Below are positions 38,807 to 57,936 of a DNA stretch of 64,000 nucleotides, piece by piece (position 1 is the first letter of the stretch; each line of letters starts with the position of its first letter). Origin of the DNA: PVC group bacterium (lineage in GTDB: Bacteria > Omnitrophota > Gorgyraeia > B26-G9). The notes under the pieces are model-generated. The model was not told the DNA's origin and ran no database searches. It saw nothing but the letters and a program-made list of their open reading frames with translations. A program made the position numbers and the translations under genes. The stretch is from contig JAAEQR010000003.1 in assembly GCA_024231215.1 (NCBI GenBank), forward strand, positions 22,660 through 86,659. Reading direction: 5' to 3'.

Positions 38807-38861
38807 ACCTATTTTTAAATAATCCAAACTATAATAATAACCTATTGGGAGAAAACAAGTT

Positions 38862-41800
38862 ATGGGTATCAATAAGAAATACCTATATCTAAGAATTATT
38901 GCATGTATTCTAATACAGGCGGTTTTGTTTGGTAACAGCGGCTTGATCGGAGTAGTGCGCGCAGAAAACTTCCTGTCGCCGGTTTTAGAAATAAATAATA
39001 AGCTGGTTAAGACTTCGTTTGAAACTCCTCAGGTAAAAAGTCGTCGTTTTGTTCATAATCTGGATGATTTATCAAAACTTTCCCGCCGCAAAAGAGATGA
39101 TCTCGAAATAAATGTTCTTAAAAGAATTAGAAATATTAATCTCAAAGGTTTTAATTTTTTATCAAGGGAGGAGCAGGAGAATTTCATTTTTGTTGATTTG
39201 GACTTTGCGGAGTATGTGTTAAAGACTATCTTTACCGATAAGATTAAAGAGGACATGTCTCAGAAGAACGTATCTTATGAAATCATAACAAGGATTATAG
39301 TAGACATGTTTATTCTTTTAAACAAGGTGTTAGAACAACAAGAAGGACAGGATAATACCTATATCGCATGCACTAATTATACTTTTTCTAAAGATAGAAA
39401 AGGACAGACATATGTACTCACGGTTAATTTTGAGAAAAAAGGAGTGGAAGCTAAAATATCAAAATTTATAGCCGAAGAAATTGATGCAGAAATGCCGAAT
39501 ATTGTCTCAGTGTCCGGGCCGATAGAAAAAATCACTGGAAATAAAAGTATAGATGTTAGTTTTTACGGGGTTTCAAAAAATAACAAAGTGCTTACCCCAT
39601 CGGAAATAACCCGAGCAGTGAAGAAGCTGCCGCCGAACGCAGAGAATATAGATATTTCGGAATTAAGAATTGCGCATAAAAGATTACTTAATTTGGCCAG
39701 AGATCGTTACGAAAAACAGGATATTTTAAAAGAAATAACCCCAGCCATAGAGAGGAAAATAAAAACAGGTATTGTTGCGGAAGGGACATCTTCTTTTACC
39801 CCGATTACTGAGAAGGCTTTTGTGGGAAAGATTATTTGCGCGGAAGTGGTAGAAAAAGAGAAAAAGCCGACATATCCTTTAGTTTCATATTATTCGGAAA
39901 CATTGAGGAAAGATCTGAGATTATTAGATAATGCTATAAATACGGCTATGTATAAGTATGAAGGTATAGATATTAATACGGTTCATCATTTTTTGCAGGA
40001 TGCCTTTGCGTTTGCAAGACATGATTCTCGGGAAACACGCAAGGCTCCGACAGCTCAATTTTTATCGCATCTTATGGATGAGCGGAAGGCAGTGCGGGTT
40101 AGAATTCGAAAGGAATTATTGGAGATTATTACATATACGCCGATGTTAAATAAAGACAATGAGCCAAGAGAGATTTCGGAAATCATGGAGGAAGAGCTAG
40201 CTGAGTTAGCGGAACTGCAAGATTACGAAGACAATATGTATATCTGGGGAGAACTGAACAGGCTTAATCAAGAGGATTTGCTATGGGATAACATCATGTC
40301 TCAAGCAAATGAAATTGTGGGTAATATATATCAATATATAGAAGGAGTGGACCCTGAACCTAAAAATGAAAAAGAGCAGATGGCTTTAGATGCGATTGAA
40401 AATGCGAGGAAGGCAGTCCCAACAGATACTCAAATTGGGTCTATGGTCGATACTGTATTACAAGATCTGCCGCGGCAGTTATTTGCCTGGTTAAGAAAAT
40501 ATGATTGTTCTTTACATGAGGCGTTTTTTCGGTCTATGCAACCTATTGTAGACCAGTTAGTTCAAGCTCAAGAACATACGTCGCAAATGAAAGGAGGGCT
40601 TTCTTTAAATCTCCATACCGAACTTTGTACTTTTGTGGATACTGTATTGTTGGAACTGGGAGAGTATGAATCGCGGCATGTAGTGGTACATAATGACTCG
40701 GAGAAGGAGCCATTTATATTATATGTGCCGGGAGACCTAGGAGGGCCGGAGGAATATTTGCGTTTTCGGCGTCTTTATCCGAATATGGTAGGGATTGTAG
40801 TTAAAGAAGGAGCTAAACATTATGCGGTAATGGCCGGAGATCACGGATTCCCGGTGATTAATAAAATTGATTTAATTGAAATGAGCGAAGGAAAATTGCC
40901 GTTAGAGCTGGTGTTAAAAAAGAAAACTAATGGAATTATGCGTATTAGCAGGGGAGGGAAAGCGTTTTTATATATAAACCCTTCATTGAGGGATACCCTT
41001 GAGGCGGAAACTATTATAAAAACAGCGCAGGCAATTAAAATATTGTGTGAAGCTAATATAGATTTAGAAGGAGAAGATGGGAAATTAAAGACGTATGATG
41101 GAGTAGAAGCGCCTGAGATAATGATGAATTTGGATATTGCCGAAGATGCGGAAGACTTGCCGAGCCGGGTAATACGGAAAATAGGTCTTTATCGTACAGA
41201 ATATGAGTATGAACGTCATGGAGAGTTAACAGAAGAAGCATGGTATAAAATTTTTAAGAAAATTGTTAAAGATTCAGAGGGCGATTTTATCGCTGTACGT
41301 TTACCGGATAGAAAAGTATCCGGAGAAGGTGGGGATATAAAAAATCCTAAAGCTTTTGGAAAAAGTAATCTTGAAGGACTTGATTTTTTGCTTGATGAAA
41401 GAGCTAAGGGCAGGCGAATCTCAACGATAATATTAAGGGCCCTTATGAGAGTATATGCAGAAGACGGAGTCGTAGGTGCTCTTTTTCCCATGGTTTCGCA
41501 AGAAAGAGCCGAAGGAATAATCGACTTTGTCGAAGAAATAAAAGAGAATTTAATCTTTGAACAAAAAAATAAAAATAAGCGGGAAGCTTTGGAAGAGGCG
41601 TTAGACAGCTTTTCCGTGGGAGCGATGTTTGAAACTCCTCAGGCTTTTGAATTTAAAAAAGAGCTTATGGAGATTTTTGATTTTGTAAGTTGGGGGAGTA
41701 ATGACTGGAAGATGGCTTCTTCCGGGAAGTCAAGAGGTGCTCAGGGAACGACCAAAGAATTGATTTCATTTACGCCTGAGGTTGTAAAAACCGCATTAGC

Positions 41801-42191
41801 GGCAGGTAAGATGAGCAGGAAGAAGGAAGTACCTTTTTCTATCTGTGGTAAGCTTGCGTCTACCCCTGAATTCATTCTATTTTCACTATATGCAAAGTCG
41901 TTGTCGCTTTTTGATATCCGACTAAGCGTTGGTAAAGATTCTATAGCGTACGTCAAAGAATTTATTCGCCATGTCGATACTAGACGCATTAAAGATATCT
42001 TTAATGATTATCGAAAAGGTTATGATCAGAATAAATTTGATGAGAAAATAGCAGATGAAATAGAAAACATAGTGCTTTCTATGGGAGAATTAGCCAAGCC
42101 TTTTCTACAGGGACAAGTTAAGATGTCGTTACAGAAGAAAAGGGGGCAGGCATCGAAGGCTCCTGTGTTAGTGCATGAGTATGCAATATAA
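38862..42191 (+). CDS. leader-family protein 2 (1109 aa): signal peptide plus a C-terminal divergent PEP-utilizing-enzyme module (phosphohistidine swivel domain and PEP-binding TIM barrel)
   Basis: The leader reads …ILIQAVLF…VVRA|ENFLSPVLEINN. The His-domain reads MVGIVVKEGAKHYAVMAGDHGFPVI. The TIM barrel carries GLYRTEYEY, FPMVSQ, FETPQA and DFVSWGSNDW… and CGKLASTPEF. Confidence 0.65.
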   Translation: MGINKKYLYLRIIACILIQAVLFGNSGLIGVVRAENFLSPVLEINNKLVKTSFETPQVKSRRFVHNLDDLSKLSRRKRDDLEINVLKRIRNINLKGFNFLSREEQENFIFVDLDFAEYVLKTIFTDKIKEDMSQKNVSYEIITRIIVDMFILLNKVLEQQEGQDNTYIACTNYTFSKDRKGQTYVLTVNFEKKGVEAKISKFIAEEIDAEMPNIVSVSGPIEKITGNKSIDVSFYGVSKNNKVLTPSEITRAVKKLPPNAENIDISELRIAHKRLLNLARDRYEKQDILKEITPAIERKIKTGIVAEGTSSFTPITEKAFVGKIICAEVVEKEKKPTYPLVSYYSETLRKDLRLLDNAINTAMYKYEGIDINTVHHFLQDAFAFARHDSRETRKAPTAQFLSHLMDERKAVRVRIRKELLEIITYTPMLNKDNEPREISEIMEEELAELAELQDYEDNMYIWGELNRLNQEDLLWDNIMSQANEIVGNIYQYIEGVDPEPKNEKEQMALDAIENARKAVPTDTQIGSMVDTVLQDLPRQLFAWLRKYDCSLHEAFFRSMQPIVDQLVQAQEHTSQMKGGLSLNLHTELCTFVDTVLLELGEYESRHVVVHNDSEKEPFILYVPGDLGGPEEYLRFRRLYPNMVGIVVKEGAKHYAVMAGDHGFPVINKIDLIEMSEGKLPLELVLKKKTNGIMRISRGGKAFLYINPSLRDTLEAETIIKTAQAIKILCEANIDLEGEDGKLKTYDGVEAPEIMMNLDIAEDAEDLPSRVIRKIGLYRTEYEYERHGELTEEAWYKIFKKIVKDSEGDFIAVRLPDRKVSGEGGDIKNPKAFGKSNLEGLDFLLDERAKGRRISTIILRALMRVYAEDGVVGALFPMVSQERAEGIIDFVEEIKENLIFEQKNKNKREALEEALDSFSVGAMFETPQAFEFKKELMEIFDFVSWGSNDWKMASSGKSRGAQGTTKELISFTPEVVKTALAAGKMSRKKEVPFSICGKLASTPEFILFSLYAKSLSLFDIRLSVGKDSIAYVKEFIRHVDTRRIKDIFNDYRKGYDQNKFDEKIADEIENIVLSMGELAKPFLQGQVKMSLQKKRGQASKAPVLVHEYAI

Positions 42192-42202
42192 AAGAGGATA
42201 TT

Positions 42203-44296
42203 ATGGGATTTTCTGGTAAAAAAAGATCGGGCAAATCAATATCTTCACGAATTATCACCCTGATAATTCTACAGATCTTTTTTGTCTCAGGATTGTTGTC
42301 CCTAGGCAATAGCTTTGCTGCGGATACTCACCAAACCTGCCTTTCTCCCCGTGTAAATATATCTAATGCGCTAGTCAAAAATTCTTTTAGTACCTTTAAA
42401 AAGCTTAATTTAAATGATTTGTTTGAAGGATTTGCAGAGGGTATTCTAGACATCGATAAGGTAGATCACTGGTTAGTTGGTCGCAATGAATCTATCGCTT
42501 ATGAGTTTAAAACAGATTTAGTTCCTAAAATTGTACAACAACCCAATGCAAAATGGTTTTTAGAACAAATACTTGCAGAAGATAAACTTAAGCCATTACA
42601 TTTTGAAGCCCAAGCTGTTCTTTTGCAGATACGTTTTAAAGAGCTTGGATATCCTAACCATAACCCAGCCTGGAGACATTTTATATCTTCGATGAAAGAA
42701 GGGCTTCAATTCCTGGAAAACCCTGAAAACTTAGAGAATAAGGATGTAGTTATCGGCACTTGTCATGTGGCTGCGGATTCGGATTCTGTGGCTGCGGCAA
42801 TTACGTGGTATGAACGGGAAAGAATGTTAGCAGAGAATCGAGGAAAGGTTTTTATTCCTTTGATCTCTAATGAGGACAGGGATATAAATCTTGAAACAGA
42901 GAGACAATTGCATATTTGTGGGATAATAGCAGAGGATCTGATATACGCTTTTCCTAGTAAAGAGATGGAGAAAAGAGGCGAGGTTAAAAGCCTGATACAG
43001 CAGAAACTTGAGGCTATTGCTAAAACAAAATATAAGAGTAGAATAAAAATTGATTTGCTCGATCATAATGCGGTACAGGTTGACTGGTTAAAACCTTTTA
43101 AAGTACGTAAGATATATGATCATCATAACCCGGAAGTGGATATGCCGGAATTGGCCCCGGGAAATGATTATGTCCGCATTGAAGCCTCCACGACAACCAT
43201 AATTGCTCAGGAAAACATGAAAGATCGTATTTTCCATAGATCATTTCCACAGATAAAGTTTTTGACTATGGCTACCTTGCTTTCAGATACAGACTGTTTA
43301 AATTCAGATATTACACAGCAAGAAACTCTCGGGATTTTATCTCGGATGGCAAAGGATATGGGTTTTTTAAAAAAAGTGCAGTTAAATGGCGGCATAGGCT
43401 CTAGTGGTAAGATTGATTTTGAAAAAATGGAACGCTATTTTGAAATCATAGTTGATAGGGTTTATCTGAACCGGCATTCTTATGTAGAGGAATGGCTGAG
43501 GGATTGTAAGACATATAATGGGTTTGAATTCGGCCAGTCAAAAGTTATATCTTGGGAAGAGTTGTCTGAGAAAAAAGAAATGGAATTAATCGAAGGCATG
43601 AGAAATAAACTTAATGAAAACGATGACAATGAAGCTATTGTTTGGATGGTATCTTCAATGAATCCGTCTGAGTATGGCAGTAAATTTTATGCAATATGTA
43701 AAGATGACCCAGATGGGGCTAAGGCAGAACAGATTATTAGCCAGGTGATGTATCAAAGTCCGGTAAGGATCGGGCTGGTGCGGTCGATATATGTGAATCC
43801 GGCAATACATGCGTACCAGAAAGACTCTCCGGTGAATCCAGTGAGAGTTTTGAATAGAGCTTATAGACAATTTGATCTTAATCTGGATAGATCAACCAAG
43901 AAACAGATGATGGAAAAGATAAGCAATTTGATACAAGATTATGGAAGTAGATTGAAAAGGGATTTGGTTTATAGATATTATTCGTATGAAATAACCAGTG
44001 ATATAATTGAATTTCTGGAGTCAAAAGGCATATCCTGGATACATGCGGAAGTAATGAAGCCGGAAAAAATATATATCGAGGAAATAGGATTAAAAAACGA
44101 AAGAACGCGCAGGGTTCAAATGCCTGGATTTGCTTCCCGGAAGAATATAAAAAATGAGGTTGAAGGCGCAGTCGCGGAAATCATCAGAATAAATAAAGCT
44201 GAGAGGACATTGCGTTTGAACCTCCGCAATGAAATTATGGGCGCTGATGCTGCTTTTGGAATTCAAGCAAAAGAGTTAGTCTTACAGGCTATTTGA
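42203..44296 (+). CDS. leader-family protein 3 (697 aa): signal peptide plus a DHH-family phosphoesterase-like domain
   Basis: The leader reads …LILQIFFVSGLLSLGNSFA|ADTHQTCLSPRVNISN. DHH motif I is GTCHVAADSDSVAAA and motif III is IYDHHNP. It sits 11 nt after protein 2 and is likely co-transcribed with it. Confidence 0.55.
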   Translation: MGFSGKKRSGKSISSRIITLIILQIFFVSGLLSLGNSFAADTHQTCLSPRVNISNALVKNSFSTFKKLNLNDLFEGFAEGILDIDKVDHWLVGRNESIAYEFKTDLVPKIVQQPNAKWFLEQILAEDKLKPLHFEAQAVLLQIRFKELGYPNHNPAWRHFISSMKEGLQFLENPENLENKDVVIGTCHVAADSDSVAAAITWYERERMLAENRGKVFIPLISNEDRDINLETERQLHICGIIAEDLIYAFPSKEMEKRGEVKSLIQQKLEAIAKTKYKSRIKIDLLDHNAVQVDWLKPFKVRKIYDHHNPEVDMPELAPGNDYVRIEASTTTIIAQENMKDRIFHRSFPQIKFLTMATLLSDTDCLNSDITQQETLGILSRMAKDMGFLKKVQLNGGIGSSGKIDFEKMERYFEIIVDRVYLNRHSYVEEWLRDCKTYNGFEFGQSKVISWEELSEKKEMELIEGMRNKLNENDDNEAIVWMVSSMNPSEYGSKFYAICKDDPDGAKAEQIISQVMYQSPVRIGLVRSIYVNPAIHAYQKDSPVNPVRVLNRAYRQFDLNLDRSTKKQMMEKISNLIQDYGSRLKRDLVYRYYSYEITSDIIEFLESKGISWIHAEVMKPEKIYIEEIGLKNERTRRVQMPGFASRKNIKNEVEGAVAEIIRINKAERTLRLNLRNEIMGADAAFGIQAKELVLQAI

Positions 44297-44377
44297 TCAA
44301 TTTGTACCCAGTCGTAAACCCGCCGCAAAATTTATTTCTAACCATCTGAAAATAAAAGACTTAAAAATCTCGCCAGA

Positions 44378-44413
44378 CCTTGACAGGTTGTATTTCATAT
44401 GGTATACTTTACC
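44378..44413 (+). promoter_or_regulatory. family promoter cassette, copy C: CCTTGACA, 13-nt spacer, ATATGGTATACTTTAC
   Basis: The -35 is at 44380-44385 and the -10 TATACT at 44403-44408. A GC-rich hairpin, GGGCCG…CGGCCC, at 44437-44456 lies in the 5'UTR. Confidence 0.7.
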
Positions 44414-44480
44414 GCTTTTATAATAATTAATGTAGGGGCCGCGCTCGGCTCGGCCCGAATAGTCTATAGAAGAGGTAAAT

Positions 44481-46349
44481 ATGCTATCCAAACGAATAAT
44501 AAAAGTTGTTGCAGTTGTTATTATCCAGATGTTTTTATTTATGGATTTTGCCTGGGCAGCGGATTGTCTAAGTCCTTCTTTGAATTTTAGCGGAACTCAA
44601 TTTTCCTCTCATTACAATATTATTTCTGAGGCAATTAAGATTTTTGAAGAATTAGAAGGAGCTCAGGAACAATTTGTTATCAAATCAGGTGATAATTATT
44701 TTTACGTTTATAATCCTAATAATGCTTCAAAAACATTATTAACAAATGCAGAAGTTATTATTAATAATGAAGACGTAGCAGTTGCTTTATTGGGTGATTT
44801 TAAATACCAGAAGACAGAAAAGAAGCTAGTAGAGCCGGTGAAAAATGTAAATATTATTACGGATTTATATTCAGTTCAGCAATGGCGTTCAATATTTGAA
44901 ATGATTATTCACGGGGTTGGTCCGAATAAACCAGGATATTCTCGGGACTATATCCCGCATGTCAAACGATGGTTTAGGCTTCTTTTTAAACAGATAACTG
45001 GGGTAGAGCCTCCAGCTGAAGCTGTTTATTTTTTCGAGGCAGTATATGCGGATGTTGTTACTAGCCGGGTTAATCCTATGGTAAAAAAATACAATAAAGA
45101 AGAAGAGCGTTATGGGGTGCGTGAAATAGAATTAACTCAAAAGGCGATAGGTAATTTTGCGGCAACGCCCTACGCATACATGGATGCAGGTGTTAGAGAA
45201 GAGATGTATAAAAAATTAGATGCGGTTTTAGCAGAGATAGTAGAGATAGCTCTAGCTCAAGGAGCGACTGGCGATTGGCCGACAGCATTAAATGCAATAA
45301 TGCACAGCCAGGGAACGGTCACCGGAACTGAATGGATCCAGGACCGATTAGAAAAAGGAATGTGGCCGGATGTATTGCAGACAGATAAAATAATATTAAT
45401 TGGTGGGGTGTTATGGCTCAAATCAATTCTTAGAAGCAGACCTTTAAGTGATCCTTTAAGAGTTCAAAAATTTGGAGGAATGATTGTAAATATTAAAGAC
45501 CCGCAAGATGCAATTGGAAGATTTTTAAGGCTATTGAGCCCTGAATTTGCGGATGCGATATTTGCTGATGGGTATCTTAATGTGGGAAGTTTTTTAAACC
45601 CATTATCACATACAATTGCTTCTCATACTAAGTATTGGAATAGTCGTAGAATCGCTAAAATCAAGGCAATGATGCTTGTATTTAGCGCATTAAGGCAGAA
45701 TCCCGCGTGGTTAACCAAATACGGACGCAAGTCTTTAGATATTAATGCAGCAGAAACTGAATTCAGAAGAGATCTTCTAAAATTACTTAGAAGTGACTTA
45801 TCCTCCTTGCCCCAGCATGATCCGGAACTTATTGGGCCGGGGTATAAATTTGTGTCTAATGATGAGAATGAGGCTACGGGAGGTATCTTTGTTTTAAATG
45901 AAGCGGCTGAAAAAATTGGATTTTATGCGGACAATAAAACAGTTGCTGCAAATAATGATATCATTGAGCCGATCAAAGCAAAAGTTAAATTTACAAAAAA
46001 TCTTACAGCTAAAGTAGAAGAGTTAAATAAAATCACTCCGGATAGAGCAAATAACCAGGGGTATATGATGATTAATTCTTTGAATCAGGAAGCGGCGAAT
46101 CAAATTAGAGACAAAATTAAAGAAATCAGTTTATTTGTAGAACAGTTTCAGGGTGCAGATACACGGGAGCTTGCTGTACGGATTAAGGAAGTGCAGGATT
46201 TAGCTAGACAGAATATGGACATTTCTAAATTAGATGAAATTAAAGTAAAAATGCAGAATTTGCTTAGTACTACTATAAAGTCAATTGAAGTTTGTAAGCC
46301 TGCTTCAGGGCAGAGTTCAATTATTGCTGCAATCAGTATATCAATATAA
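44481..46349 (+). CDS. leader-family protein 4 (622 aa), function unknown
   Basis: The leader reads …VVIIQMFLFMDFAWA|ADCLSPSLNFSG. The 5' end has a nucleotide-level resemblance to the neighbouring gene at 46364. Confidence 0.65.
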   Translation: MLSKRIIKVVAVVIIQMFLFMDFAWAADCLSPSLNFSGTQFSSHYNIISEAIKIFEELEGAQEQFVIKSGDNYFYVYNPNNASKTLLTNAEVIINNEDVAVALLGDFKYQKTEKKLVEPVKNVNIITDLYSVQQWRSIFEMIIHGVGPNKPGYSRDYIPHVKRWFRLLFKQITGVEPPAEAVYFFEAVYADVVTSRVNPMVKKYNKEEERYGVREIELTQKAIGNFAATPYAYMDAGVREEMYKKLDAVLAEIVEIALAQGATGDWPTALNAIMHSQGTVTGTEWIQDRLEKGMWPDVLQTDKIILIGGVLWLKSILRSRPLSDPLRVQKFGGMIVNIKDPQDAIGRFLRLLSPEFADAIFADGYLNVGSFLNPLSHTIASHTKYWNSRRIAKIKAMMLVFSALRQNPAWLTKYGRKSLDINAAETEFRRDLLKLLRSDLSSLPQHDPELIGPGYKFVSNDENEATGGIFVLNEAAEKIGFYADNKTVAANNDIIEPIKAKVKFTKNLTAKVEELNKITPDRANNQGYMMINSLNQEAANQIRDKIKEISLFVEQFQGADTRELAVRIKEVQDLARQNMDISKLDEIKVKMQNLLSTTIKSIEVCKPASGQSSIIAAISISI

Positions 46350-46363
46350 AGGAAGGTAAAAAT

Positions 46364-49183
46364 ATGTTATCTAAGAGATTCGTAAAAATTATTTCAATTG
46401 TAATCATTCAGGCATTTTTGGTTTTGGACTTTGCCTGGGCCATGGGGCCTGATGCCAGATTTTTTGATGCCGGAGCACAGGAATATCTTGCTCCGACATT
46501 AACTATTAACAGCGCGCCGATTCAGGCAACTTTGCAAAATATGATGGCGCGTGAGAAATCACTTCAGGATGTTATTGATTTTGGCAAAGAAGAAAAAACA
46601 GAATTCTTTGCCGGGTTATCTAAAGAAGAAAAAATAAAACAGCTTGAACAATGGATGGCTGCGTCTTTTGAAGGCGGCGGACCCAAAGGCGCTTATGAAG
46701 CAGGGATTGGACAACTGTTTATGGAGTCATGGATGCATTTGAAAAACCAGGGCAAGGAAGATGTTACCGGGTTTGATGTTATCGGGGGTAACTCCGCAGG
46801 TGCAATTAATGCTTTGTTTTTTAGTTTAGCAATAATGTATGATCCGACTTTTGTTAAATATAATGAAATTACCTGGGTAAAACATTTAAATTTAAAGAAT
46901 TTATTAGAACCGGGCCAAAATTATAATCCTAAGAACGCAGTTTTTTCCAGCCAAATAATAGATCGCGCAATAAAAGCCATAGAGCAAAAGTTGGAAGAGT
47001 GTAAGAATAACGACAAGACTCTTTCTTATGCTCCGGAAGAGATAAGAGTTGTTTTTTCAGTAACCAATCTTAGTGGAACTCCTTATTGGGATGAAGTGAA
47101 GAATCTTCTGGATGGTAAAAAAGGTATTAGATATGACCACCAGGGGAAAATCCATTTTACAATTAAAAAGAAAGACCGCTACAGTCCTGAGACTATGGAA
47201 ATGCTTACATTGATGATGAAAGTTGCGGTAGCTTCAGCATCAATTCCAATTGTTTTTGAAGCGCGAAAAATAGCTCAGTCAGTTAGAGCTTATCCTGGCA
47301 GCATTTTGGCAAACATGGCTGTGAAAGCCGGGAAATGGCTTACCGAAAAAATCACATCAATTTTTGTCGATGGAATGCTTGTAGACAACAAGGCGATAAA
47401 AACAGTAGCAAAGCTAGCTAGGAAGAAGGATATTGAAGAGGGAATGCTGAACAGCAATTTGCGCAATAGATTGCAAGTGGCTATTTCACCGAATGTAATA
47501 GATGATACCGAAGGAGAAAGATTTGATAAACAGGATATCCCTTCTGTTGCTATGAAGAGCCTTAGTGCGGTTATGGCGCAAGTTCTTTATCAGAATGAAA
47601 AGATTGATGAGATAAATAAGAAAAACACGCTGATTACGCATTTCATACAGGATATACAGAAACAGGCTGAAAAAGTAAAGCGTTATAAATGGAGTAAGAA
47701 GCGACTAAAGCAGGAGATTGATGAGTTATTATTCGGATCAAGTTACAGTCTTATTAAACGCAAAAGTGAAAATAGAGCCAAAAGACACATTCTAAAGGAA
47801 ACAGGAAAAGAAGTGGAATATGAAGCGACCAAGGATGAAGTAGCCTGGTATATAAAAAGAAATAAAGAACGTGTAATCAGGCAGCGTTTGCTGGCCAACG
47901 GAATTATTACCGAAGCACAGCTTAACAGTCAGGATGAACGGGATAAATTGTTTATTGATTACTTGGCACTTTTTACGTTTGTCGAGGAATGCGGTCGTGA
48001 TTTAAGAGGCAGGGAAGAAGTATACGTACATCAGATTGCGCCAACTAAGCATCCTTTGGCATCTGATCTCTTGCTCGGGTTTTTGAGTGAGGATGTCAGG
48101 CAGGCTGATTTTAATCAGGGATATGAAGATGCACGATTGGCATTGGAGGCGCTTTTAGGTGTGGATCTTTCTGGTTTGCGCCGGCAGGAATCGGTTCAGC
48201 AGACGGAAGGTTATCAGTTTGCTTATAGCAATGTTTCTTTGACAGAAAGAAAAGAAATAGTAAATATGCTTATTGCCAGAGCAAAACTTATTGTTAAAAC
48301 TATCTTAAGCAAAAAACATTCGTCCTTGGTGGGTAAAATATTCGCTCAGCCGGGGATTGTGGGAAGAAATATTCTGCTTAGTGGTGCTTTAATATTTGTT
48401 AAAAAAATGCTGGCAAAACAATTTCATATTCCTCAGGATGAAAAAAATGCTAAAGCAAGAAGAGTCGAGTCTTTAAAGCTAAATATGCGTAATAATATTT
48501 TATATAAAGAGAATGAACTTTATAATTTAAAGGAAACAAAAGCAAGGCTGGAGCAAATAGCTAATTCTAAGAAGCCGGTTGCAGTTATTGTAGGTAGTGA
48601 TTTAGAAACTTCATTTGAGGCAATGTCTGTGATTAGTAGGTATAGAAAAGATATTACTATTCTTAAAGCACCACATGGAGAGACCCCTGGACAAGCTTTG
48701 CGAACAAGTTATACAAAAGGAAAAGAGACTATTGATTTACATAAATCTACCCAATATAACAGAGATGTTATTTTAAAAACTTTTATTTTAAATTCAGGAA
48801 TTTTAATTAGTACTAAAAAGATGCTGGATAAATATTCTCGAATTGGAGGTAATTACAAAATTACAGAATTGGGGGAAAAAGCAGAAGCCGAGTGGGCAAC
48901 AATTATTAATAATAAAGAACATATAATTATATTGGGAGAGACCCCGGAACAATTAAAACCGATATTAAAGGATAAGGATGTATTAGAAATAGAGACAGCA
49001 AAGCATAGGAAGGCTTTGAATAGAAAAATCCCCTTTGTCGGCAGGAATGTTTGGGAGAAATATTTTGGCAAAGATAAGCAAGCTAAAACACGTAATTTAC
49101 TGGACCTTCGTTATGTACCTAGTTTTGGTGGATATAAACAACCATTGATGATGCATAATAATCTGGTGAATATAGCAATTTAA
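46364..49183 (+). CDS. leader-family protein 5 (939 aa): signal peptide plus a patatin-like phospholipase domain (ExoU/VipD-type)
   Basis: The leader reads …IVIIQAFLVLDFAWA|MGP…EYLAPTLTINS. The patatin blocks are GGGPKGAYEAG (oxyanion hole), GGNSAGA (GxSxG) and FVDGMLVDN (catalytic Asp). Confidence 0.65.
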   Translation: MLSKRFVKIISIVIIQAFLVLDFAWAMGPDARFFDAGAQEYLAPTLTINSAPIQATLQNMMAREKSLQDVIDFGKEEKTEFFAGLSKEEKIKQLEQWMAASFEGGGPKGAYEAGIGQLFMESWMHLKNQGKEDVTGFDVIGGNSAGAINALFFSLAIMYDPTFVKYNEITWVKHLNLKNLLEPGQNYNPKNAVFSSQIIDRAIKAIEQKLEECKNNDKTLSYAPEEIRVVFSVTNLSGTPYWDEVKNLLDGKKGIRYDHQGKIHFTIKKKDRYSPETMEMLTLMMKVAVASASIPIVFEARKIAQSVRAYPGSILANMAVKAGKWLTEKITSIFVDGMLVDNKAIKTVAKLARKKDIEEGMLNSNLRNRLQVAISPNVIDDTEGERFDKQDIPSVAMKSLSAVMAQVLYQNEKIDEINKKNTLITHFIQDIQKQAEKVKRYKWSKKRLKQEIDELLFGSSYSLIKRKSENRAKRHILKETGKEVEYEATKDEVAWYIKRNKERVIRQRLLANGIITEAQLNSQDERDKLFIDYLALFTFVEECGRDLRGREEVYVHQIAPTKHPLASDLLLGFLSEDVRQADFNQGYEDARLALEALLGVDLSGLRRQESVQQTEGYQFAYSNVSLTERKEIVNMLIARAKLIVKTILSKKHSSLVGKIFAQPGIVGRNILLSGALIFVKKMLAKQFHIPQDEKNAKARRVESLKLNMRNNILYKENELYNLKETKARLEQIANSKKPVAVIVGSDLETSFEAMSVISRYRKDITILKAPHGETPGQALRTSYTKGKETIDLHKSTQYNRDVILKTFILNSGILISTKKMLDKYSRIGGNYKITELGEKAEAEWATIINNKEHIIILGETPEQLKPILKDKDVLEIETAKHRKALNRKIPFVGRNVWEKYFGKDKQAKTRNLLDLRYVPSFGGYKQPLMMHNNLVNIAI

Positions 49184-49218
49184 GTGACAAGTTACGAGTG
49201 ACAGGTGAGAAGTTAATG

Positions 49219-49258
49219 CCCCCCTTCCGGGAATATCCGGGAGGGGGTTTTTGTTTTG
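49219..49258 (+). terminator. intrinsic terminator (CCCCCTTCCGGG…CCGGGAGGGGG followed by TTTTTGTTTTG)
   Basis: An 11-12 bp GC stem plus a T-run lies after protein 5. Confidence 0.9.
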
Positions 49259-49380
49259 TACTCGTATAGTTTGGCAATCATCCATCGCTATGTGGCGCTT
49301 AAGCCGCAGCGCATCTTTAACTCTCTGCGAATAAAACACTTAAATCTTCCATTTTTTTATAATAAAATCCCTTCTAGCTA

Positions 49381-49413
49381 TTGAAAAAAGCCAAATCATA
49401 TGGTATACTTTAC
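49381..49413 (+). promoter_or_regulatory. family promoter cassette, copy D: TTGAAA, 17-nt spacer, ATATGGTATACTTTAC
   Basis: The -10 TATACT is at 49404-49409. The -35 is a weaker TTGAAA. Confidence 0.6.
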
Positions 49414-49475
49414 CGATTTTATTTATCATTTTTTAGCAACTTTTTAAAGTGTATTTAAGAAAGAAGGAGTTTTTT

Positions 49476-52400
49476 ATGTTATCGACGAAAAATAATCAAA
49501 AAATTGGTTTCAAATTAATATCTTTTGTTCTTATCCAGGCTTTTCTTTTAATGAATGTTTCCGGTGCCTTTGCCGGACTGGCTGTGGCTCAAAACAGCGT
49601 GGAAAATCAAACTACACTCGCTCCGAATATTGCGATCAGCCATAATGCTTTGCAAGGCATGTTTATGGTTGAACAAGCTCCGGTGATCAAAGTGCCGGAA
49701 AGTTTAATCGACGTAGATTATTTTATGAAGACAGTACGTCGGGCATACTTGACTCGCAAGGTTAATGCTGTGAAAAAAGCTGAAGATTTAGAAACTGCGA
49801 TGCTGGGGATCGTGGAAAAGTATACATCTGCGGATACTGATAAAGTGCGTAGTGCGATCATTACTAAAGTTCGCAAGGCTGGTAAAGAACTTCCTATATA
49901 TAAAGAAGTGGAAAAAATGCTGACTAAAAAGTCTCTGCATATGGAAATGATAAAACATGTGCTTAAGAAAAAACAACTTGGTGAAAAGGTATTTACGGCT
50001 AATAGTGCTGGTGAGTTGTTGAAAACTTTTGGCGTGGATGAAGAGACGCAGCAGCAGGCAATAAATGATGCTAAGCAGACAATAGGTCTTGGTGTAAAAC
50101 TTACCCGTAAAGAACTCAAAAACATTTTAACCCAGATTCCAAGTAAAGAAAAAATTCCCTCTTTGGCTATAGAATATCTGGATAATAAATACAAAATTAA
50201 AGAATGGTGGGGGGTGCAGCTATTTAAAGGAATATGGATGTGTAAGATCGGACAAATGTCTTGGCCGGTGTTAGGGGTGAAAATAGTTCGCTTTGTAAAA
50301 GAGAATGATTTGCTTTCTAAATTCTGGGGAAAGTTTGTGGCTTGGTGGGAAGGCTCATTTAAAAGTTTTATTATTAACTATATAAAAGGAATAAAATTCC
50401 AGTATTCCCAGGGCTCAGGGTATAATTTCGAAACAGCGCGTAACTGGCTTGATACTTTACTTCGTCTTTATATAGATAAATCTGATCGTGAGGATGCTGA
50501 GATTGACCAGGCGCAGACAAGAGAATATATATTTGACCAAATGCGAAAAAAAGGGATTGTTCCGGAAGAGTATAAGCTTTTATTTGCGTCAATGGTTTCA
50601 AAACAGCCTGTGCCTGAAAACATCGAAGGCTTTGCTAAGACAGCAAGTGAAAAGAGATTAACAAATGAAGATATAAAAAAATTGACAATTATGCTTGATA
50701 AGGTAATTGACCGGGCAGAAATCGCGATTTCTCAATACGAATTATCAGGAAATTCCCGGACAGATGAAAAAGCCTGGGATATGCTGGATAAGCGTTTTGA
50801 AGTATATTTAAGCGTGGTTGAGAAACCGTTAATTACGGTGTTTGATATGTGTTCTAAATATCGCATTATCAGTGATATGGTATTTATGATGTTTAAAAAT
50901 TCAGGACTGCTGCTAGAGAATGACAAATATTTATTTAGCCGGATAGGCGATAAAAATATATTTGAAGATGTAAAAATACAGATCAGAGAAAGAATAGAGG
51001 ATAACCGGAAAATATTATCCGGGAAATTAGACAAAAACGATTACACCATAACTACAGCTGGCAACAACCTTAAAATAATTCTCCAGTATATTCTAATGAT
51101 AAAGCAGACAGCTTTTGCAGATGGAAAAGTTGATTTATATGAAGCTAAAAACTGGTTTGGTAAGTTATTTGATTTTTATAAGCAAAGTACTCCTGAATCT
51201 CGCAGGGATATTATTAAAAGACTGAAACGCGCGGAATTGATCCTCAGCGATAAAGATGAAGCATTGTTTAGTGAGTTGCTGAAATCAAAGCCGGGAGTTA
51301 CTGAAAAAATTATTATTGCCATGACTAAAAATGTAAAGACAAAGAGAGCCGGGGAGTCGAAAAGACAGAAATTGATAAAACAGATTCTAAGCGATAAATA
51401 TAGATATGTCTCCAAAATAAACGCACAGGTATCTGATGAGACTGTATTAAAATCAGTAGATAAAAAAGAATTAATCGGAGTTATCGATAGGTTTGTGCGG
51501 GCGCAAAACCTGATTATGGAAGCGGATAAGGTATACCTGGCCGCGGCAACCCCAGAAGAATATGCAGTCGCAGGGGAGATATTAGAAGATGTCCTAAGTA
51601 TTTATAAACTGACGAAATATCGTATGGAACGAAATATTATTTTTAAAATGCTGATAGAGGCAAGATTAGTAACGCGTGAACATAAAGGATTATTTGATTT
51701 GCTATATGCAGGTTCTGCAACCGCAGTCGAAGATATTAAAGATGCAGTTACGGCTCAAGTACAACAGCGCAAAAAAGATTTGGAAGAGTCTTTTATTGAA
51801 ATTCGTGAAGCTGTGAATAAGTCAGTAGAGCTTTATGAGAAAGCTGCGGAGTTATCTAAGGAGCAGATTGATGAATTTCTTAATGAAAAAATGGCTAAAG
51901 TTATAAGTGATTTTACCCAGGAGTATTCGTTTGAACAGGTATTAGAGAGTATCCGAAGGATGGAGACAGGAGAAAAAATAGATTTCTTAGTTGATTTATA
52001 TGAAGACGATAAAGCTAGGCCTGATCAAAAGAAAAGAATATTTGAGATATTAAAAGAAGTGGGATTGCTGGATGGTTTTTGGGTAAATGTTCACAATTTT
52101 TTCAGTAAGCTTGGGCTTACTAAGCGTTTTGCTGCAATTAAGGAACGTTTAAAAGAAACGATCCTGGGTAAAGTTTACTCTGTGCTAGGTGAAAAGAAGC
52201 TGAAGCTCGGGGGGCAGGCTATAGTTTATGCGAAGGCAGCTCAGGCTTTGGATCCGGCGTTAAAGATATATGTCAAAGAACCTTTAGCCAGGCAATTTAT
52301 AACTGAGAGACTGGAAGCGGCAAATTTAATTGATAATTCGATTCAGATGAAGGCAATGTTCTGGTTCTTAGCCGGAGCTAAGCCGTTTGAACCAACTAAT

Positions 52401-55019
52401 ATTATTATCCGGTTAATAAATATTCCGATAAGTGCAATCGGATTACTTATACAGTATCCGGCAAAATTGTTGATTAAATTCATGGTAAAAATAGTCATCA
52501 CTCATCGTCAGATACAAGAATCAGCACGGATTGAGCAGCTGATTATTGCCGCAAGGAAAAATATCGAAGAGGCTGTTAGTTTGTATTCTAAGGGTGATAA
52601 ACCAACCGCGGAAGTAAAAATAGATGCAGCTTTAGATACTTTTGGAGATGCAAAACAGACGCAGGCTAAAATTTTGCAGGCTTTTAAAGATAATGGTTTT
52701 CTTACGGAAGATGACACAGAGTTGAATAGCTTGTTTGATCAGTTGGCACAAAGCACAGATTATGCGCAAAAAGAATCTGTGAAGGCGGAGATTGTACAAA
52801 AGATAAGCATGAATCAGCCGGATCCTCTTCCGAGCGTAGACGTAATACTTGAAACAATAATTCCGGCGGCAGAGCAAGCATATATTGATAAGAATTGGGC
52901 TAGTTTGGAAGCTGCCCTGGATGTCTTTTTGAATTTTTATGAAAAGGTAAAAGAGCCTAGGGAGGAAGAGATTGTATTAAATGGTTTTGCGGGTGCTTTT
53001 CGTGAACATGATATATGGAGCGATACCCTGGATGTATTATTTGAAAAATTAAGAAGTCCGGGGCAGAATTATGAGCAGATTAGAAATGATATCAAAAGTT
53101 ACATTCAGAAAAAAATGAGTGGCACAACTCCGGAAGTGCCTGATTTAGATCAGGCACTTACTGCAATAGCAGAAGCGACGGGGTTATATGCGGATAAAAA
53201 ATATGAAGAAGCCGAAGCTGAATTACTTAAAGTATTGCAGTTTTATGCATTAAATACAGTAAGCGAACGAGAGCGTACAATTGTCATGGATAATATTAAG
53301 CCTTTGTTGCCTACAGAGGATAAGCAGTTAGAAGCGTTTTTTAGATCAATTGCCGATCAAAATACTCCGGATGAAGATAAACAAAGTTTGATAGCTGCGA
53401 TTATAGAAAAAATAACTATTTATCAGAAGTCCCAAGTTGATCCGACTCCGGAAATGCCGGATTTGAATAAAATACAGAGGGATGTGAATAAGGTCGTTAA
53501 TTTATATAAAGAAAAGCAAGATAATACTGCGGAAGAAATATTAGGATCGATACTGAATCTGGCAATAACTCACAAAGATAATGCAGAGGTTATAACTCCA
53601 ATATCCAATATGCTGGTGACTGCGGGATTATGGAATGATGCGGATAAGCAGTTGTTTTCGGAATTATTGCAGAAAAATGACTTGCAGGGGATAAAAGATA
53701 AGATTTCTGCAATCGTATTAAAACATAGAAATGAAATAAGATCAGCAACCGAATATATTAATACTGTAAAAGTTTTTTGTTACGAAAGAAAGTTTAATTG
53801 GGAAGTTGCGTCACAGTCGATTGATTCAGCCTTAACTCTTTATGAGGAAAATGCATGGGTGAGAGATTCAATAGCAGTAGCTTTAACCATGGAAAAAGCA
53901 TTGCTGGATAATGTTACCCGAAATGAATTAATTGGGAAGTTTAATAATGCGATAAAAAATAATGAAAATACAACCGGGATAAAGGGTGAGATAAAAGCGG
54001 CTATAAAAACTTATGCAACAGCGCAGTTAGAGAAAGTAGAGAAGGTAAAGCAAGTTGCGGCGAAAGATAAAGTTAGCAGTTTGACAATAATTATGCGTAA
54101 CAGCTATTACGCGAATGATCTGGATCTTCCGATACAGGCACGGGATGATTTGTTAGCAACATATGTTAAGGTTATGCCATTGCGGAGCTTAATAAAAGAA
54201 CAAATTATAGAAGCTGATTTAATGACAGAAGAGGATGTGAATAGATTATTCGGAGCTTTGGATAGGGTTTCTTCTGATGATGAAATAAAGGATGCACTAG
54301 ACGCTATCGAGAATAATATGTTAACCCATGTGTTGGAGCAACGGCTTGATAAGGCGCAGACCACTATTATACTTATAGCTGATCGTTATGAGGTGGCGGT
54401 AAAAGATGAAGACTATAAGAAAGCAGAGGATCTTTTGAATTATCCTTTGGCTGTGGCGTTAGATTGTAATGAGCATGCAGAGGCTATCTTGACGGAACTG
54501 GAAAAACAGAAATTAGTAACTACTAATGAAGTTAAAGGACACTTCCGGGACTATGTGAATTCCAGGGATGCCGGGTATCTCGATCTTTTAAAACGTAAAA
54601 TAACCGAAGCACAAAAAGCTCTTAAACAGATAGAAGAGCCGAAACAGCCGGATGATGGACAGCAGAATGATATTATTCAGTTGAAAATGAAAGTGGTAAA
54701 CTTTATTGCTGAGGCATGTGGTAATTATTATGTAACTGAAGATTTTGACGCGGCAGGAAAATCTCTTAATGAAATATTGAATGCATATATGGAACATCCT
54801 GAAATACGTGATTTTATCACTGAAATCATGGAGAAGAATGACTTGATGAACGATACTATTAAGGGGTTATTTAAAGACTTAGGAGTCTTGTCCGATAATA
54901 ATATTTCCGAACAACAGATTGATAGTATAAGAGGAAAGATACAGGATGCTGTAAAAGCAAATGTAAAAGCAGTAAAAAGAAATAAAAAGATGCTGGAATT
55001 AATTGGCATGGCGATTTAA
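49476..55019 (+). CDS. leader-family protein 6 (~1847 aa): signal peptide plus a giant K/E-rich α-helical protein built of ~105-aa degenerate repeat modules
   Basis: The leader reads …FVLIQAFLLMNVSGAFA|GLA…TTLAPNIAISH. The ATG at 49476 follows an AAGAAGGAG RBS; the ORF track's GTG at 49449 is less likely. A recurring (D/E)-x-x-LF-x-x-L signature occurs roughly every 100 aa, and P-(E/D)-x-P-D-L module boundaries fall near nt 52818, 53130 and 53448. Confidence 0.7.
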   Translation: MLSTKNNQKIGFKLISFVLIQAFLLMNVSGAFAGLAVAQNSVENQTTLAPNIAISHNALQGMFMVEQAPVIKVPESLIDVDYFMKTVRRAYLTRKVNAVKKAEDLETAMLGIVEKYTSADTDKVRSAIITKVRKAGKELPIYKEVEKMLTKKSLHMEMIKHVLKKKQLGEKVFTANSAGELLKTFGVDEETQQQAINDAKQTIGLGVKLTRKELKNILTQIPSKEKIPSLAIEYLDNKYKIKEWWGVQLFKGIWMCKIGQMSWPVLGVKIVRFVKENDLLSKFWGKFVAWWEGSFKSFIINYIKGIKFQYSQGSGYNFETARNWLDTLLRLYIDKSDREDAEIDQAQTREYIFDQMRKKGIVPEEYKLLFASMVSKQPVPENIEGFAKTASEKRLTNEDIKKLTIMLDKVIDRAEIAISQYELSGNSRTDEKAWDMLDKRFEVYLSVVEKPLITVFDMCSKYRIISDMVFMMFKNSGLLLENDKYLFSRIGDKNIFEDVKIQIRERIEDNRKILSGKLDKNDYTITTAGNNLKIILQYILMIKQTAFADGKVDLYEAKNWFGKLFDFYKQSTPESRRDIIKRLKRAELILSDKDEALFSELLKSKPGVTEKIIIAMTKNVKTKRAGESKRQKLIKQILSDKYRYVSKINAQVSDETVLKSVDKKELIGVIDRFVRAQNLIMEADKVYLAAATPEEYAVAGEILEDVLSIYKLTKYRMERNIIFKMLIEARLVTREHKGLFDLLYAGSATAVEDIKDAVTAQVQQRKKDLEESFIEIREAVNKSVELYEKAAELSKEQIDEFLNEKMAKVISDFTQEYSFEQVLESIRRMETGEKIDFLVDLYEDDKARPDQKKRIFEILKEVGLLDGFWVNVHNFFSKLGLTKRFAAIKERLKETILGKVYSVLGEKKLKLGGQAIVYAKAAQALDPALKIYVKEPLARQFITERLEAANLIDNSIQMKAMFWFLAGAKPFEPTNIIIRLINIPISAIGLLIQYPAKLLIKFMVKIVITHRQIQESARIEQLIIAARKNIEEAVSLYSKGDKPTAEVKIDAALDTFGDAKQTQAKILQAFKDNGFLTEDDTELNSLFDQLAQSTDYAQKESVKAEIVQKISMNQPDPLPSVDVILETIIPAAEQAYIDKNWASLEAALDVFLNFYEKVKEPREEEIVLNGFAGAFREHDIWSDTLDVLFEKLRSPGQNYEQIRNDIKSYIQKKMSGTTPEVPDLDQALTAIAEATGLYADKKYEEAEAELLKVLQFYALNTVSERERTIVMDNIKPLLPTEDKQLEAFFRSIADQNTPDEDKQSLIAAIIEKITIYQKSQVDPTPEMPDLNKIQRDVNKVVNLYKEKQDNTAEEILGSILNLAITHKDNAEVITPISNMLVTAGLWNDADKQLFSELLQKNDLQGIKDKISAIVLKHRNEIRSATEYINTVKVFCYERKFNWEVASQSIDSALTLYEENAWVRDSIAVALTMEKALLDNVTRNELIGKFNNAIKNNENTTGIKGEIKAAIKTYATAQLEKVEKVKQVAAKDKVSSLTIIMRNSYYANDLDLPIQARDDLLATYVKVMPLRSLIKEQIIEADLMTEEDVNRLFGALDRVSSDDEIKDALDAIENNMLTHVLEQRLDKAQTTIILIADRYEVAVKDEDYKKAEDLLNYPLAVALDCNEHAEAILTELEKQKLVTTNEVKGHFRDYVNSRDAGYLDLLKRKITEAQKALKQIEEPKQPDDGQQNDIIQLKMKVVNFIAEACGNYYVTEDFDAAGKSLNEILNAYMEHPEIRDFITEIMEKNDLMNDTIKGLFKDLGVLSDNNISEQQIDSIRGKIQDAVKANVKAVKRNKKMLELIGMAI
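52500..54900 (+). repeat. in-frame degenerate tandem repeats of ~312-318 nt (104-106 codons) inside the protein 6 gene
   Basis: Three modules are aligned, starting with QPDPLPSVDVILETI, TPEVPDLDQALTAI and TPEMPDLNKIQRDV. Further diverged copies carry the …ExxLFxxL… motif. Confidence 0.5.
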
Positions 55020-55049
55020 TTGGTGAATGGTTGATCGTGAATAGTTTTT

Positions 55050-55072
55050 GGGCCGGTTGAGACCGGCCCAAA
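55050..55072. other. GC-rich hairpin (GGGCCGGT-TGAG-ACCGGCCC) between protein 6 and protein 7
   Basis: A perfect 8-bp stem with a 4-nt loop. The T-run is upstream (TTTTTG), not downstream, so it is ambiguous as a terminator. Confidence 0.4.
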
Positions 55073-55088
55073 CTGATATATAATTAAT

Positions 55089-56639: not shown

Positions 56640-56667
56640 TTAATATTTATAGGAAAAAAATTAAATT

Positions 56668-57936
56668 ATGAGTAGTAGATTTGGAGTAATATTTAAAATC
56701 ATTGTAATAGTACTTGTGCAGGCATTTTTGACGTTAGATCTTGCTTGGGCTGCGCAGGGGAATCTGCGTTCGTTTCAAGCGGATGATACTATTTCTCCTT
56801 ATATCCAGGTCGAAAATATTTCTTTGCAGGCCGGATTTTCTGTTTTATTTACTAAGGTTGCTGTGAAAGATATTGCTCAGATTGAAACTATTGAGAGTAT
56901 AGAGCAAAACACTACTAACTCATCCATCCTATCTCAAATCAGAAATTGGATGGAAAGATTTTTTCTAAAAATCACATTTTCTTTAGGACAGATATTGTTA
57001 GGGTGGACTGGACTTGTTTGGGCGCAGGAGCATATAGAAGAATATAACGGCCCTTATTTTGATAACGTATGGTCGTATTGGTGGTATCGGACATGTAATT
57101 TTTTTACAAATCCAGTTGTTTTTAAGACTGTATTGGTTATCTCAGGTGTAGCAATGGTTTTTTTAGTCGCGAGTTTTGTTGTAGCTAACCTGATGACAAG
57201 TAAAAAAGATAGAAGCAATCTGGGAATGGTGATATTGATTGGTTTGATTGGTTATTTGGTTCTAAGCAGTGATATAGGCAATAAAGTACAAGACTTTTTC
57301 TTTCCCGATGTTATGCCTGATATGAAGACTTCGACACAAAAGAGTATTATGGAGCACAAATTAGGACTCCCTGGAGTAGGCATACAGACAAATGCGGTGC
57401 ATTCGGAAGTAATACAAGAATTCACCTCAAAAGGAAAAACAAGGAAAAATGTAATTATAAACGGAAAGATAGTAGGAGATAATATTCCTCAGAAGAGTTT
57501 TACACTTGATCAGAATGAGATTGTCTTGGCTGTATTGTTCATGCTTGCAGGGATTTTTTTAATTGATCATGCAATAAACAAAAATAAAAGAGGTCAGAAA
57601 ACATTAATAGATATATCTTTTGCTTTCTGGGGCCCGATAATAGAGGAGATAATTGAGATATTGAAAGCGTCATCTCAATCTGCAGGCCAGCTGGTAACGA
57701 TTAATGAATCAGACATAGCTGATTTACCATCAGAGACTGAGACTGTGTTGGATCAGTCAGGGGTGTTTTTCTCGGATAAGAATTCTGCCCAGGGAGAGCT
57801 TCAGCTTTATATGGAACAATTCGGGGCGCTTCTTTATCCTACAAACTGGGATGATTTTCGAAAAGCAGAACAGGTGCATCGTAACCGGCTGAATAATTGT
57901 AGTACATCATATGTTTTGCTGGAACAGGCTGTTTAG
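56668..57936 (+). CDS. leader-family protein 8 (422 aa): signal peptide plus an internal transmembrane-helix block
   Basis: The leader reads …IVIVLVQAFLTLDLAWA|AQG…ISPYIQVENIS. Hydrophobic helices lie at aa ~150-200 and ~285-305. Confidence 0.65.
   Translation: MSSRFGVIFKIIVIVLVQAFLTLDLAWAAQGNLRSFQADDTISPYIQVENISLQAGFSVLFTKVAVKDIAQIETIESIEQNTTNSSILSQIRNWMERFFLKITFSLGQILLGWTGLVWAQEHIEEYNGPYFDNVWSYWWYRTCNFFTNPVVFKTVLVISGVAMVFLVASFVVANLMTSKKDRSNLGMVILIGLIGYLVLSSDIGNKVQDFFFPDVMPDMKTSTQKSIMEHKLGLPGVGIQTNAVHSEVIQEFTSKGKTRKNVIINGKIVGDNIPQKSFTLDQNEIVLAVLFMLAGIFLIDHAINKNKRGQKTLIDISFAFWGPIIEEIIEILKASSQSAGQLVTINESDIADLPSETETVLDQSGVFFSDKNSAQGELQLYMEQFGALLYPTNWDDFRKAEQVHRNRLNNCSTSYVLLEQAV

Follow-up and report, generated by a model that had tools for sequence, protein, structure and literature searches.

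A divergent patatin-type lipase with a leader, box and tail shared by unrelated cargo proteins in a PVC group bacterium

The patatin gene and its layout

The open reading frame (ORF) 46364..49183 lies on the + strand of a 64,000-nucleotide stretch of DNA from a PVC group bacterium (contig JAAEQR010000003.1), which we analysed as a whole and call the window. It is one unbroken frame of 939 residues plus stop, and it encodes a real, very divergent patatin-type lipase. The first-pass annotation, made from the sequence alone, had picked out three catalytic motifs, and all three are in place: GGGPKGAYEAG at residues 104–114, GGNSAGA at 141–147 (with Ser144) and FVDGMLVDN at 334–342 (with Asp336). 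The patatin identification is correct and already public, as the product is identical to the NCBI entry 'MAG: patatin-like phospholipase family protein [PVC group bacterium]', which comes from a 104-kb contig. The stop codon of the preceding gene occupies 46347–46349, 14 nucleotides ahead of the patatin ATG. Because this gap is short and the ORF has its own Shine-Dalgarno sequence, the two genes are probably co-transcribed.

Profile and structure comparisons agree with the motifs. The Pfam Patatin model PF01734 matches residues 101–343 at E=2e-15, scoring 58 bits against a gathering threshold of 27.7, well beyond what chance would give. The proposed Ser/Asp dyad also lines up with 56 relatives, with S144 invariant and D336 kept in 55/56; the invariant columns are G142, S144, G146, W171, P295 and G337. 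The third position of the catalytic Asp motif departs from the usual D-G-G, reading D336-G-M. A family profile of 57 sequences (the query and its 56 relatives) aligns the Ser and Asp motifs to GTSVG and YVDGG of CapV. From the same alignment, AlphaFold (AF2) gave a model with a predicted local distance difference test score (pLDDT) of 71 overall, whereas a single-sequence run (pLDDT 36) was unusable. The patatin core mostly scores 85–97 and the helical domain ~70–92 as far as residue ~700, so that the confident part of the model spans residues ~95–700; the last ~230 residues are unreliable. Foldseek searches of the PDB returned CapV (3.7e-6), plant patatin (1.2e-5) and CapE (5e-4), each with probability 1.0. 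By profile score, motifs and fold, the protein belongs to the patatin superfamily (PF01734).

The layout of the rest of the protein is only partly as first described (Table 1). Of the ~550 residues of helical sequence that were expected to follow the catalytic domain, ~325 stand as confidently predicted helices (~376–700); the next ~240 form a low-confidence, mixed alpha/beta region that is an orphan. This C-terminal region (~701–933) has no Pfam match, and in an exhaustive phmmer search covering 1.84 billion cluster representatives no relative aligned past query residue ~655. Nor does it hold an internal repeat, its score being no better than 110 of 500 shuffles. Among the phmmer relatives, residues 27–95 have a counterpart only in P0003, a 224-residue fragment with the same leader. 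Net charge is +10 in the helical domain and +13 in the orphan region. A candidate membrane span at residues 280–298 was rejected, since this hydrophobic segment sits in the buried patatin core.

Table 1. Coordinates of the lipase gene, its parts and related features (window positions unless a metagenome locus, L, is given)
Feature	Residues	Position	Strand	Basis or remark
Shine-Dalgarno AGGAAGG		46350..46356	+	7 nt before ATG; read from sequence
Sec-type leader	1-26	46364..46441	+	Alignment of 11 window leaders; hydropathy scan
LAPTLTINS box	42-50	46487..46513	+	Leader alignment
Patatin catalytic domain	~96-375	46649..47488	+	Pfam, conserved columns, AF2, Foldseek
Gly-rich loop G104-G-G-P-K-G109	104-109	46673-46690	+	
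Nucleophile elbow G142-N-S144-A-G146	142-146	46787-46801	+	
Catalytic D336-G-M	336-338	47369-47377	+	
Helical domain	~376-700	47489..48463	+	phmmer, motif alignment, AF2 helices
Degenerate DUF3376-type motif HPLASDLLLGFLSEDVRQADFNQGY	563-587	48050-48124	+	
Orphan basic C-terminal region	~701-933	48464..49162	+	No homologue or family match
LVNIAI-COOH tail	934-939	49163..49180	+	
Tandem array of ten leader+tail genes		33021..60730	+	Includes the patatin gene
Eleventh leader+tail member		15252-16244		
PlpD-like type Vd autotransporter		25925..28153	+	Signal peptide, patatin passenger, POTRA, Omp85 barrel
Cargos with PPDK_N + PEP-utilizers mobile domain, and HD domain		L113:7846-12036; L118:7100-13159		
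Signature-bearing metagenome loci		L086, L088, L092, L094, L096, L103, L110, L113, L116, L118, L121, L125, L126, L127, L130		

A leader, box and tail shared by unrelated cargo genes

The N terminus of the lipase has the make-up of a Sec-type leader. Residues 1–26 (MLSKRFVKIISIVIIQAFLVLDFAWA) comprise a basic n-region (K4/R5/K8), a 13-residue h-region (IISIVIIQAFLVL) and the site A-W-A26, in keeping with the -3/-1 rule for signal cleavage. A hydropathy scan found no other membrane-span-like segment outside the buried patatin core. Charge is positive ahead of the hydrophobic segment and net negative after it, which argues for an extracytoplasmic location of what follows. Fifteen residues after A-W-A26 begins the sequence LAPTLTINS.

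Assignment of the protein to a leader family had been part of the initial reading and was borne out, with 11 window ORFs sharing a K/R-rich start, an 'IIQAFL'-type core and an [ASV]-x-A site. Past the cleavage-like site, by 5–25 residues, the family carries a box, L[SA]PxΦxΦ, in which P44 is invariant and L42 at least 90% conserved over 12 leaders. The far end of the proteins is conserved too. A C-terminal tail, ΦΦ[E/x]x[AS][IV]-COOH, closes 11/11 leader-family ORFs and 0/22 of the other window ORFs of at least 150 residues (Fisher p=8e-8 for co-occurrence of leader and tail). The patatin ends in LVNIAI, and the remaining members in LVEYAI, LIEMAI, LVEMAI, VHEYAI, LVLQAI, AISISI, LIGMAI, FVESAI, LLEQAV and LVEQGV.

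Likeness among the 11 members is confined to the first 50–100 residues and the tail; by BLASTP, the cargo domains in between are unrelated. Ten of the members stand in one tandem array, whose cargos are PAD_porph, unknown, PEP-utilizers_C, DHH, unknown, patatin, three further unknowns and TPR. No Pfam or NCBIfam model matches the leader, box or tail, and the library searched held no paper on them. Taken together, leader, box and tail appear to be a conserved two-ended signature that is so far undescribed.

Among the cargos, 33021–34271 encodes an agmatine/peptidyl-arginine deiminase-like enzyme, 38862–42191 a PEP-utilizers_C protein (PtsI/PEP-synthase-like) and 42203–44296 a DHH phosphoesterase. 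Such cytoplasm-type enzymes are unexpected on proteins with an export leader.

The signature recurs outside this genome. When public metagenome contigs were scanned for the leader core with a degenerate DNA pattern, 53 loci came back, of which ~17 are true family genes. Every complete leader ORF in these loci has the tail (VIEQSI, LVAQSI, LIDQAI, LAEQAI, LVMQSI, SVEQSI, IIGSAI, IFEKAI), and leader, box and tail occur together in at least 14 complete metagenome ORFs in addition to the 11 of the window. Almost all ORFs that seemed to have only the tail proved to be family members whose leaders were too divergent for the regular expression used. Here, too, the genes run in tandem, six in locus L113 and five in L118, with PPDK_N plus PEP-utilizers, HD domain, HEAT repeats and PEMT as cargos; no metagenome member of the family carries a patatin. 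A homologue search with the leader alignment added one fragment of 77 residues.

Short contigs from the European Nucleotide Archive (ENA) carry two fragments from other samples. P0003, on a 1130-bp contig, has a leader 75% identical to that of the patatin ORF and also the linker 'FFAGISKEE', with ~120 extra residues between the two; P0080, on a 622-bp contig, matches the leader of ORF 34458. These fragments indicate that close relatives of the organism are present in public assemblies, on short contigs only. Locus L119 encodes ORFs of 1913 and 1474 residues (L119:4598-10339 and L119:168-4592, - strand), the former with a 'LLVIQAFLVFDLAWAGG' leader and no clear LSP box. Their shared tail differs (RWALAAGA, NWTLAVGA) and may be a sister sorting signature. 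In two other loci, a homologous protein of ~480–494 residues (MSEV.H..T...DRIS.SQK...) follows a family array (L113:12257-13741 and L125:6362-7804). Judged by sequence, this protein resembles a polytopic membrane transporter, and its position may simply reflect synteny of related organisms.

Relatives of the lipase and its possible role

The phmmer search returned only 68 proteins at E<=1e-3, with identity of at most 30%; with 68 matches among 1.84 billion representatives, the lipase is very divergent. Its best relatives (P0002, P0004, P0005 and P0006) are 554–612 residues long and 25–30% identical, and they cover the query from the start of the patatin domain (residue 102) to ~600–655. Their alignments, and that of P0017, reach query residues 598–655. 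The displayed relatives have the patatin domain at the very start, without a signal peptide, and several have hydrophobic C-terminal segments. P0069, a protein in the cluster of one relative, is named 'DUF3376 domain-containing protein' by NCBI. Across the 57 aligned proteins, TIGR03607 matches 57/57 (best E=7e-31) and PF11856 (DUF3376) 23/57. The query itself has no match to PF11856; TIGR03607 is the sole NCBIfam model it matches with a significant E-value (1.8e-13), but at 50.4 bits it falls under the cut-off of 262.45.

The query has the same domain order as these proteins, patatin first and then a long helical part, and in common with them it shows the W171 and P295 columns, the D-G-G-x-x-N-x-P region, the G-x-S-A-G elbow and a remnant of the clade motif LAGxxxxxFGGFxxxxxRxHDFxxGR. 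This remnant, HPLASDLLLGFLSEDVRQADFNQGY, retains L565, A566, G572, F573, R579, D582, F583 and G586. Unlike the displayed relatives, the query has an export leader, ~95 extra N-terminal residues and ~240 extra C-terminal residues, and it departs from near-invariant positions of the family (G338M, P344A, F294I, G567S, H581A and R587Y). On this sequence comparison, its catalytic and helical modules seem best described as an outlier of a TIGR03607/DUF3376-like branch rather than as a full member.

An orthologue of the patatin cargo was found in none of the searches of homologues, genome contigs and metagenome contigs. In a word-indexed homologue search the protein found no entry but itself, and the 57-sequence profile found only generic patatins; scanning genome contigs with the patatin protein, and metagenomes with the query and P0003, gave nothing. 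An exact-protein contig look-up for two window proteins had no match, and the genes around relative P0070 were uninformative. The library searched held no paper on DUF3376. Rv3091 of Mycobacterium tuberculosis is an extracellular patatin-like phospholipase of 564 residues, without a signal peptide, that is reported to have phospholipase A and lipase activity and to act on host phagosomes (PMC7517356). Rv3091 resembles the ~550–610-residue relatives in length and in its missing signal peptide; membership in the same clade is a lead only.

The label ExoU/VipD-like did not hold up: neither sequence, fold, helical half nor delivery points to a specific relationship. ExoU, a Pseudomonas aeruginosa toxin of the type III secretion system (T3SS), and VipD, a Legionella Dot/Icm effector, are type III and type IV secretion substrates without Sec leaders. 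Their motifs are GGGxKG and xSAG; the helical C terminus is a membrane-localisation bundle in ExoU and binds Rab5 in VipD, with ubiquitin and Rab5/22 as eukaryotic cofactors. The likeness of our lipase to them lies in an N-terminal patatin domain with a Ser-Asp dyad and similar motifs, followed by a helical C-terminal region. The differences are a Sec-type leader in place of type III/IV signals and the lack of any significant match beyond the generic patatin core.

Searches of the PDB make this concrete. By phmmer, the protein matches no patatin among all PDB sequences at E<=1. The profile of the query and its relatives gives CapV 0.003, ExoU 0.02, VipD 0.46 and PlpD 0.79, none significant, and the ExoU match spans only the 22 residues of the nucleophile elbow. 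In Foldseek, VipD (3e-3, probability 0.60, template modelling score (TM) 0.12/0.20, root-mean-square deviation (rmsd) 32 Å), iPLA2-beta (0.018) and ExoU (0.02, probability 0.44) rank below CapV, plant patatin and CapE. Thus the modelled core looks like a generic patatin fold, and neither toxin offers a convincing match for the modelled helical half, whose homology is with the helical domain of TIGR03607/DUF3376-like proteins and not with the C-terminal domains of ExoU or VipD. The second patatin of the window, a PlpD-like protein, is the nearer one to both toxins, since plain phmmer with it gives ExoU at 1.6e-7 and VipD at 1e-6. ORF 46364..49183 may still work like ExoU and VipD, by analogy with both acting on foreign membranes, yet it is not of their family and is delivered differently, and the label should be dropped.

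We consider it probable that the protein is an exported patatin-fold acyl hydrolase with a Ser144/Asp336 dyad, and that it ranks among the cargos of a two-ended sorting signature not described before. To judge from the sequence, its activity is most likely that of a phospholipase A or lysophospholipase. TIGR03607/DUF3376-like catalytic and helical modules, whose other members are cytoplasmic or tail-anchored, appear to have been joined to an export module in this lineage. The leader would direct passage through Sec, with signal peptidase I cutting after A-W-A26. The L[SA]PxΦxΦ box and ΦΦxx[AS]I tail, which seem common to at least 10 unrelated cargo proteins of the window, would then be read by a lineage-specific second step, which could consist in translocation across the outer membrane, in attachment to the surface or in retention. 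Once outside the cytoplasm, the patatin domain would hydrolyse acyl esters of membrane lipids, while the basic helical domain and the orphan C-terminal region may, by analogy, supply membrane or target binding.

A wider proposal, which we put forward tentatively, is that leader, box and tail form a dedicated sorting system or effector-delivery route in uncultured PVC-group and related sediment or groundwater bacteria. The 'IQAFL' core leader, the box and the tail would mark unrelated array proteins for export to the surface or to another cell, and the patatin lipase would be the membrane-attacking member. Action on or in another cell is favoured because many co-cargo enzymes need cytoplasmic substrates (ATP, PEP and nucleotides among them).

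Several observations tell against the reading as an exported lipase with a two-ended sorting signature. The query reads D-G-M where 54/56 relatives have D-G-G, the conserved N-E-P after the Asp is N-K-A, and the DUF3376-type motif is degenerate, so catalysis or regulation could differ. Its glycine-rich loop is the canonical GGGPKG, whereas that of every relative is G[GA]VSLG and lacks a basic residue; because of this loop, the identity of 30% or less and the TIGR03607 score of 50 rather than 262 bits, the clade placement is loose. No candidate for the second-step machinery was found; apart from family members, the window and the metagenome loci have no conserved neighbouring gene in common. 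Some family members carry internal membrane spans, and the signature may therefore mark envelope residents instead of secreted effectors. With these spans and no machinery identified, such an envelope-resident alternative keeps real weight.

In its plainest form, that alternative makes the protein a housekeeping envelope lipase that remodels or recycles the cell's own phospholipids in the periplasm or its own membranes, with leader, box and tail as retention or anchoring signals. The relatives, which are intracellular or membrane-anchored lipases without a virulence link, fit such a role, as do the internal spans of several family members and the failure to find secretion machinery beside the arrays. 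However, co-cargos of the PEP-utilizers, PPDK_N, DHH and HD types would lack their substrates in the periplasm, long tandem arrays whose cargo varies between organisms are more typical of effector or toxin repertoires, and no orthologue of the patatin cargo turned up elsewhere. We regard this role as unlikely, if still worth serious attention. Loss of catalysis, leaving a lipid- or membrane-binding module, is improbable: the six substitutions at nearly invariant positions (G338M, P344A, F294I, G567S, H581A and R587Y) would suit it, but Ser144, Asp336 and a canonical Gly-rich loop with its basic residue are retained, the Pfam score is twice the threshold and the core is modelled with pLDDT above 90.

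We give equally little credence to a phospholipase A2 toxin of the ExoU/VipD type, injected into a eukaryotic host by a type III/IV-like system, where a host cofactor would activate it. In its favour are the matching domain order and the similar GGGxKG loop and G-x-S-A-G elbow; the profile picks up the ExoU elbow (E=0.02), Foldseek lists VipD (3e-3) and ExoU (2e-2), and the PVC group, the organism's label at NCBI, includes host-associated lineages. Yet neither toxin is matched significantly by sequence, both rank structurally under CapV and plant patatin (TM 0.12–0.21, rmsd 22–32 Å over long alignments), the helical half is DUF3376-like, a Sec-type leader is present and the PlpD-like protein lies nearer to both toxins. 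Pfam scans of 22 of the 33 window ORFs of at least 150 residues found no T3SS or type IV secretion system (T4SS) gene in the window, which covers 64 kb of the 104-kb contig, and no member of the alignment matches the NCBIfam VpdC model at E<=1e-3.

Least probable of all, to the point of being very hard to credit, is a role in anti-phage defence as a CapV/CapE-type effector lipase that a cyclic nucleotide switches on, within a cyclic oligonucleotide-based antiphage signalling system (CBASS). It is suggested by the structural ranking, in which CapV, CapE and plant patatin Pat17 are the best matches to the catalytic core, and by a weak NCBIfam CBASS_lipase match (E=0.015). That match (NF041079) scores 14.5 bits against a cut-off of 200, and the likeness to CapV stops at the patatin core common to both (TM 0.2 query-normalised, ~0.5 target). 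CapV, CapE and Pat17 are single-domain cytoplasmic or vacuolar enzymes of ~300–360 residues, 13–17% identical to the query, with no helical domain, no leader and another genomic context. The lipase has an export leader, and no cyclase or CBASS gene adjoins it among the scanned neighbours, which are leader-family cargos with DHH, PEP-utilizers_C, PAD_porph, TPR or no Pfam match.

Two things are new here. One is the fusion of a TIGR03607/DUF3376-like lipase scaffold, which normally has no leader, to an export signature and to an orphan C-terminal region of 240 residues; the other is a C-terminal tail by which, along with leader and box, a family of tandem cargo genes can be recognised across organisms. 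In ORF 46364..49183, a lipase scaffold that normally stays inside the cell has plainly been recruited to an export signature. If that signature is a route of secretion or surface display, the arrays would amount to sets of effectors in PVC-group bacteria that are poorly known and in part perhaps predatory or symbiotic. Within the family, the lipase would be the easiest member to assay, and hence offers a practical handle on the pathway.

Other genes of the window

The window does hold a second patatin, as first proposed. ORF 25925..28153 carries Patatin, POTRA and Omp85 domains and matches the PlpD passenger in the PDB at E=1.4e-77. The accompanying remark that two delivery architectures for one fold lie within 20 kb is accurate as a description, one being type Vd and the other a Sec-type leader plus tail. 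Between the two patatin domains, kinship goes no further than the superfamily (BLASTP E=0.18), and they are not recent duplicates. ORF 46364..49183 resembles PlpD in being an exported bacterial patatin lipase, with a PlpD homologue 18 kb upstream, and differs from it in having no POTRA or Omp85 by Pfam.

Directly upstream of the leader+tail array lie a sigma-54 activator (29851–30852; AAA+, Fis-type HTH) and a 490-residue outer-membrane beta-barrel with a signal peptide (31353–32825; TraF_2 at 1.4e-31, weak PorP_SprF). They are candidates for a regulator and an outer-membrane partner of the array; no homologue of either was seen in the short metagenome loci. Two further genes of lipolytic type lie at 16320–17795, where a GDSL lipase/acylhydrolase with an N-terminal hydrophobic segment is fused to TPR repeats, and at 25176–25919, where an alpha/beta hydrolase immediately precedes the PlpD-like autotransporter.

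Genome-contig hits for a DEAD-box helicase, at ~60% identity, were spread over many phyla and were uninformative on where the organism belongs; its placement is taken from the NCBI label 'PVC group bacterium', and no result supported an Omnitrophota origin. Nearly all long ORFs of the window (1–64000) are on the + strand. GC content is 34–42% and GC skew is positive in every 2-kb bin (0.13–0.32); given so uniformly strong a skew, the coding strand is unusually rich in G relative to C. At the window edge, 60980–64000 is an open-ended ORF of more than 1000 residues that looks, by eye, like a pyruvate:ferredoxin oxidoreductase, which, if so, would suggest an anaerobic lifestyle.

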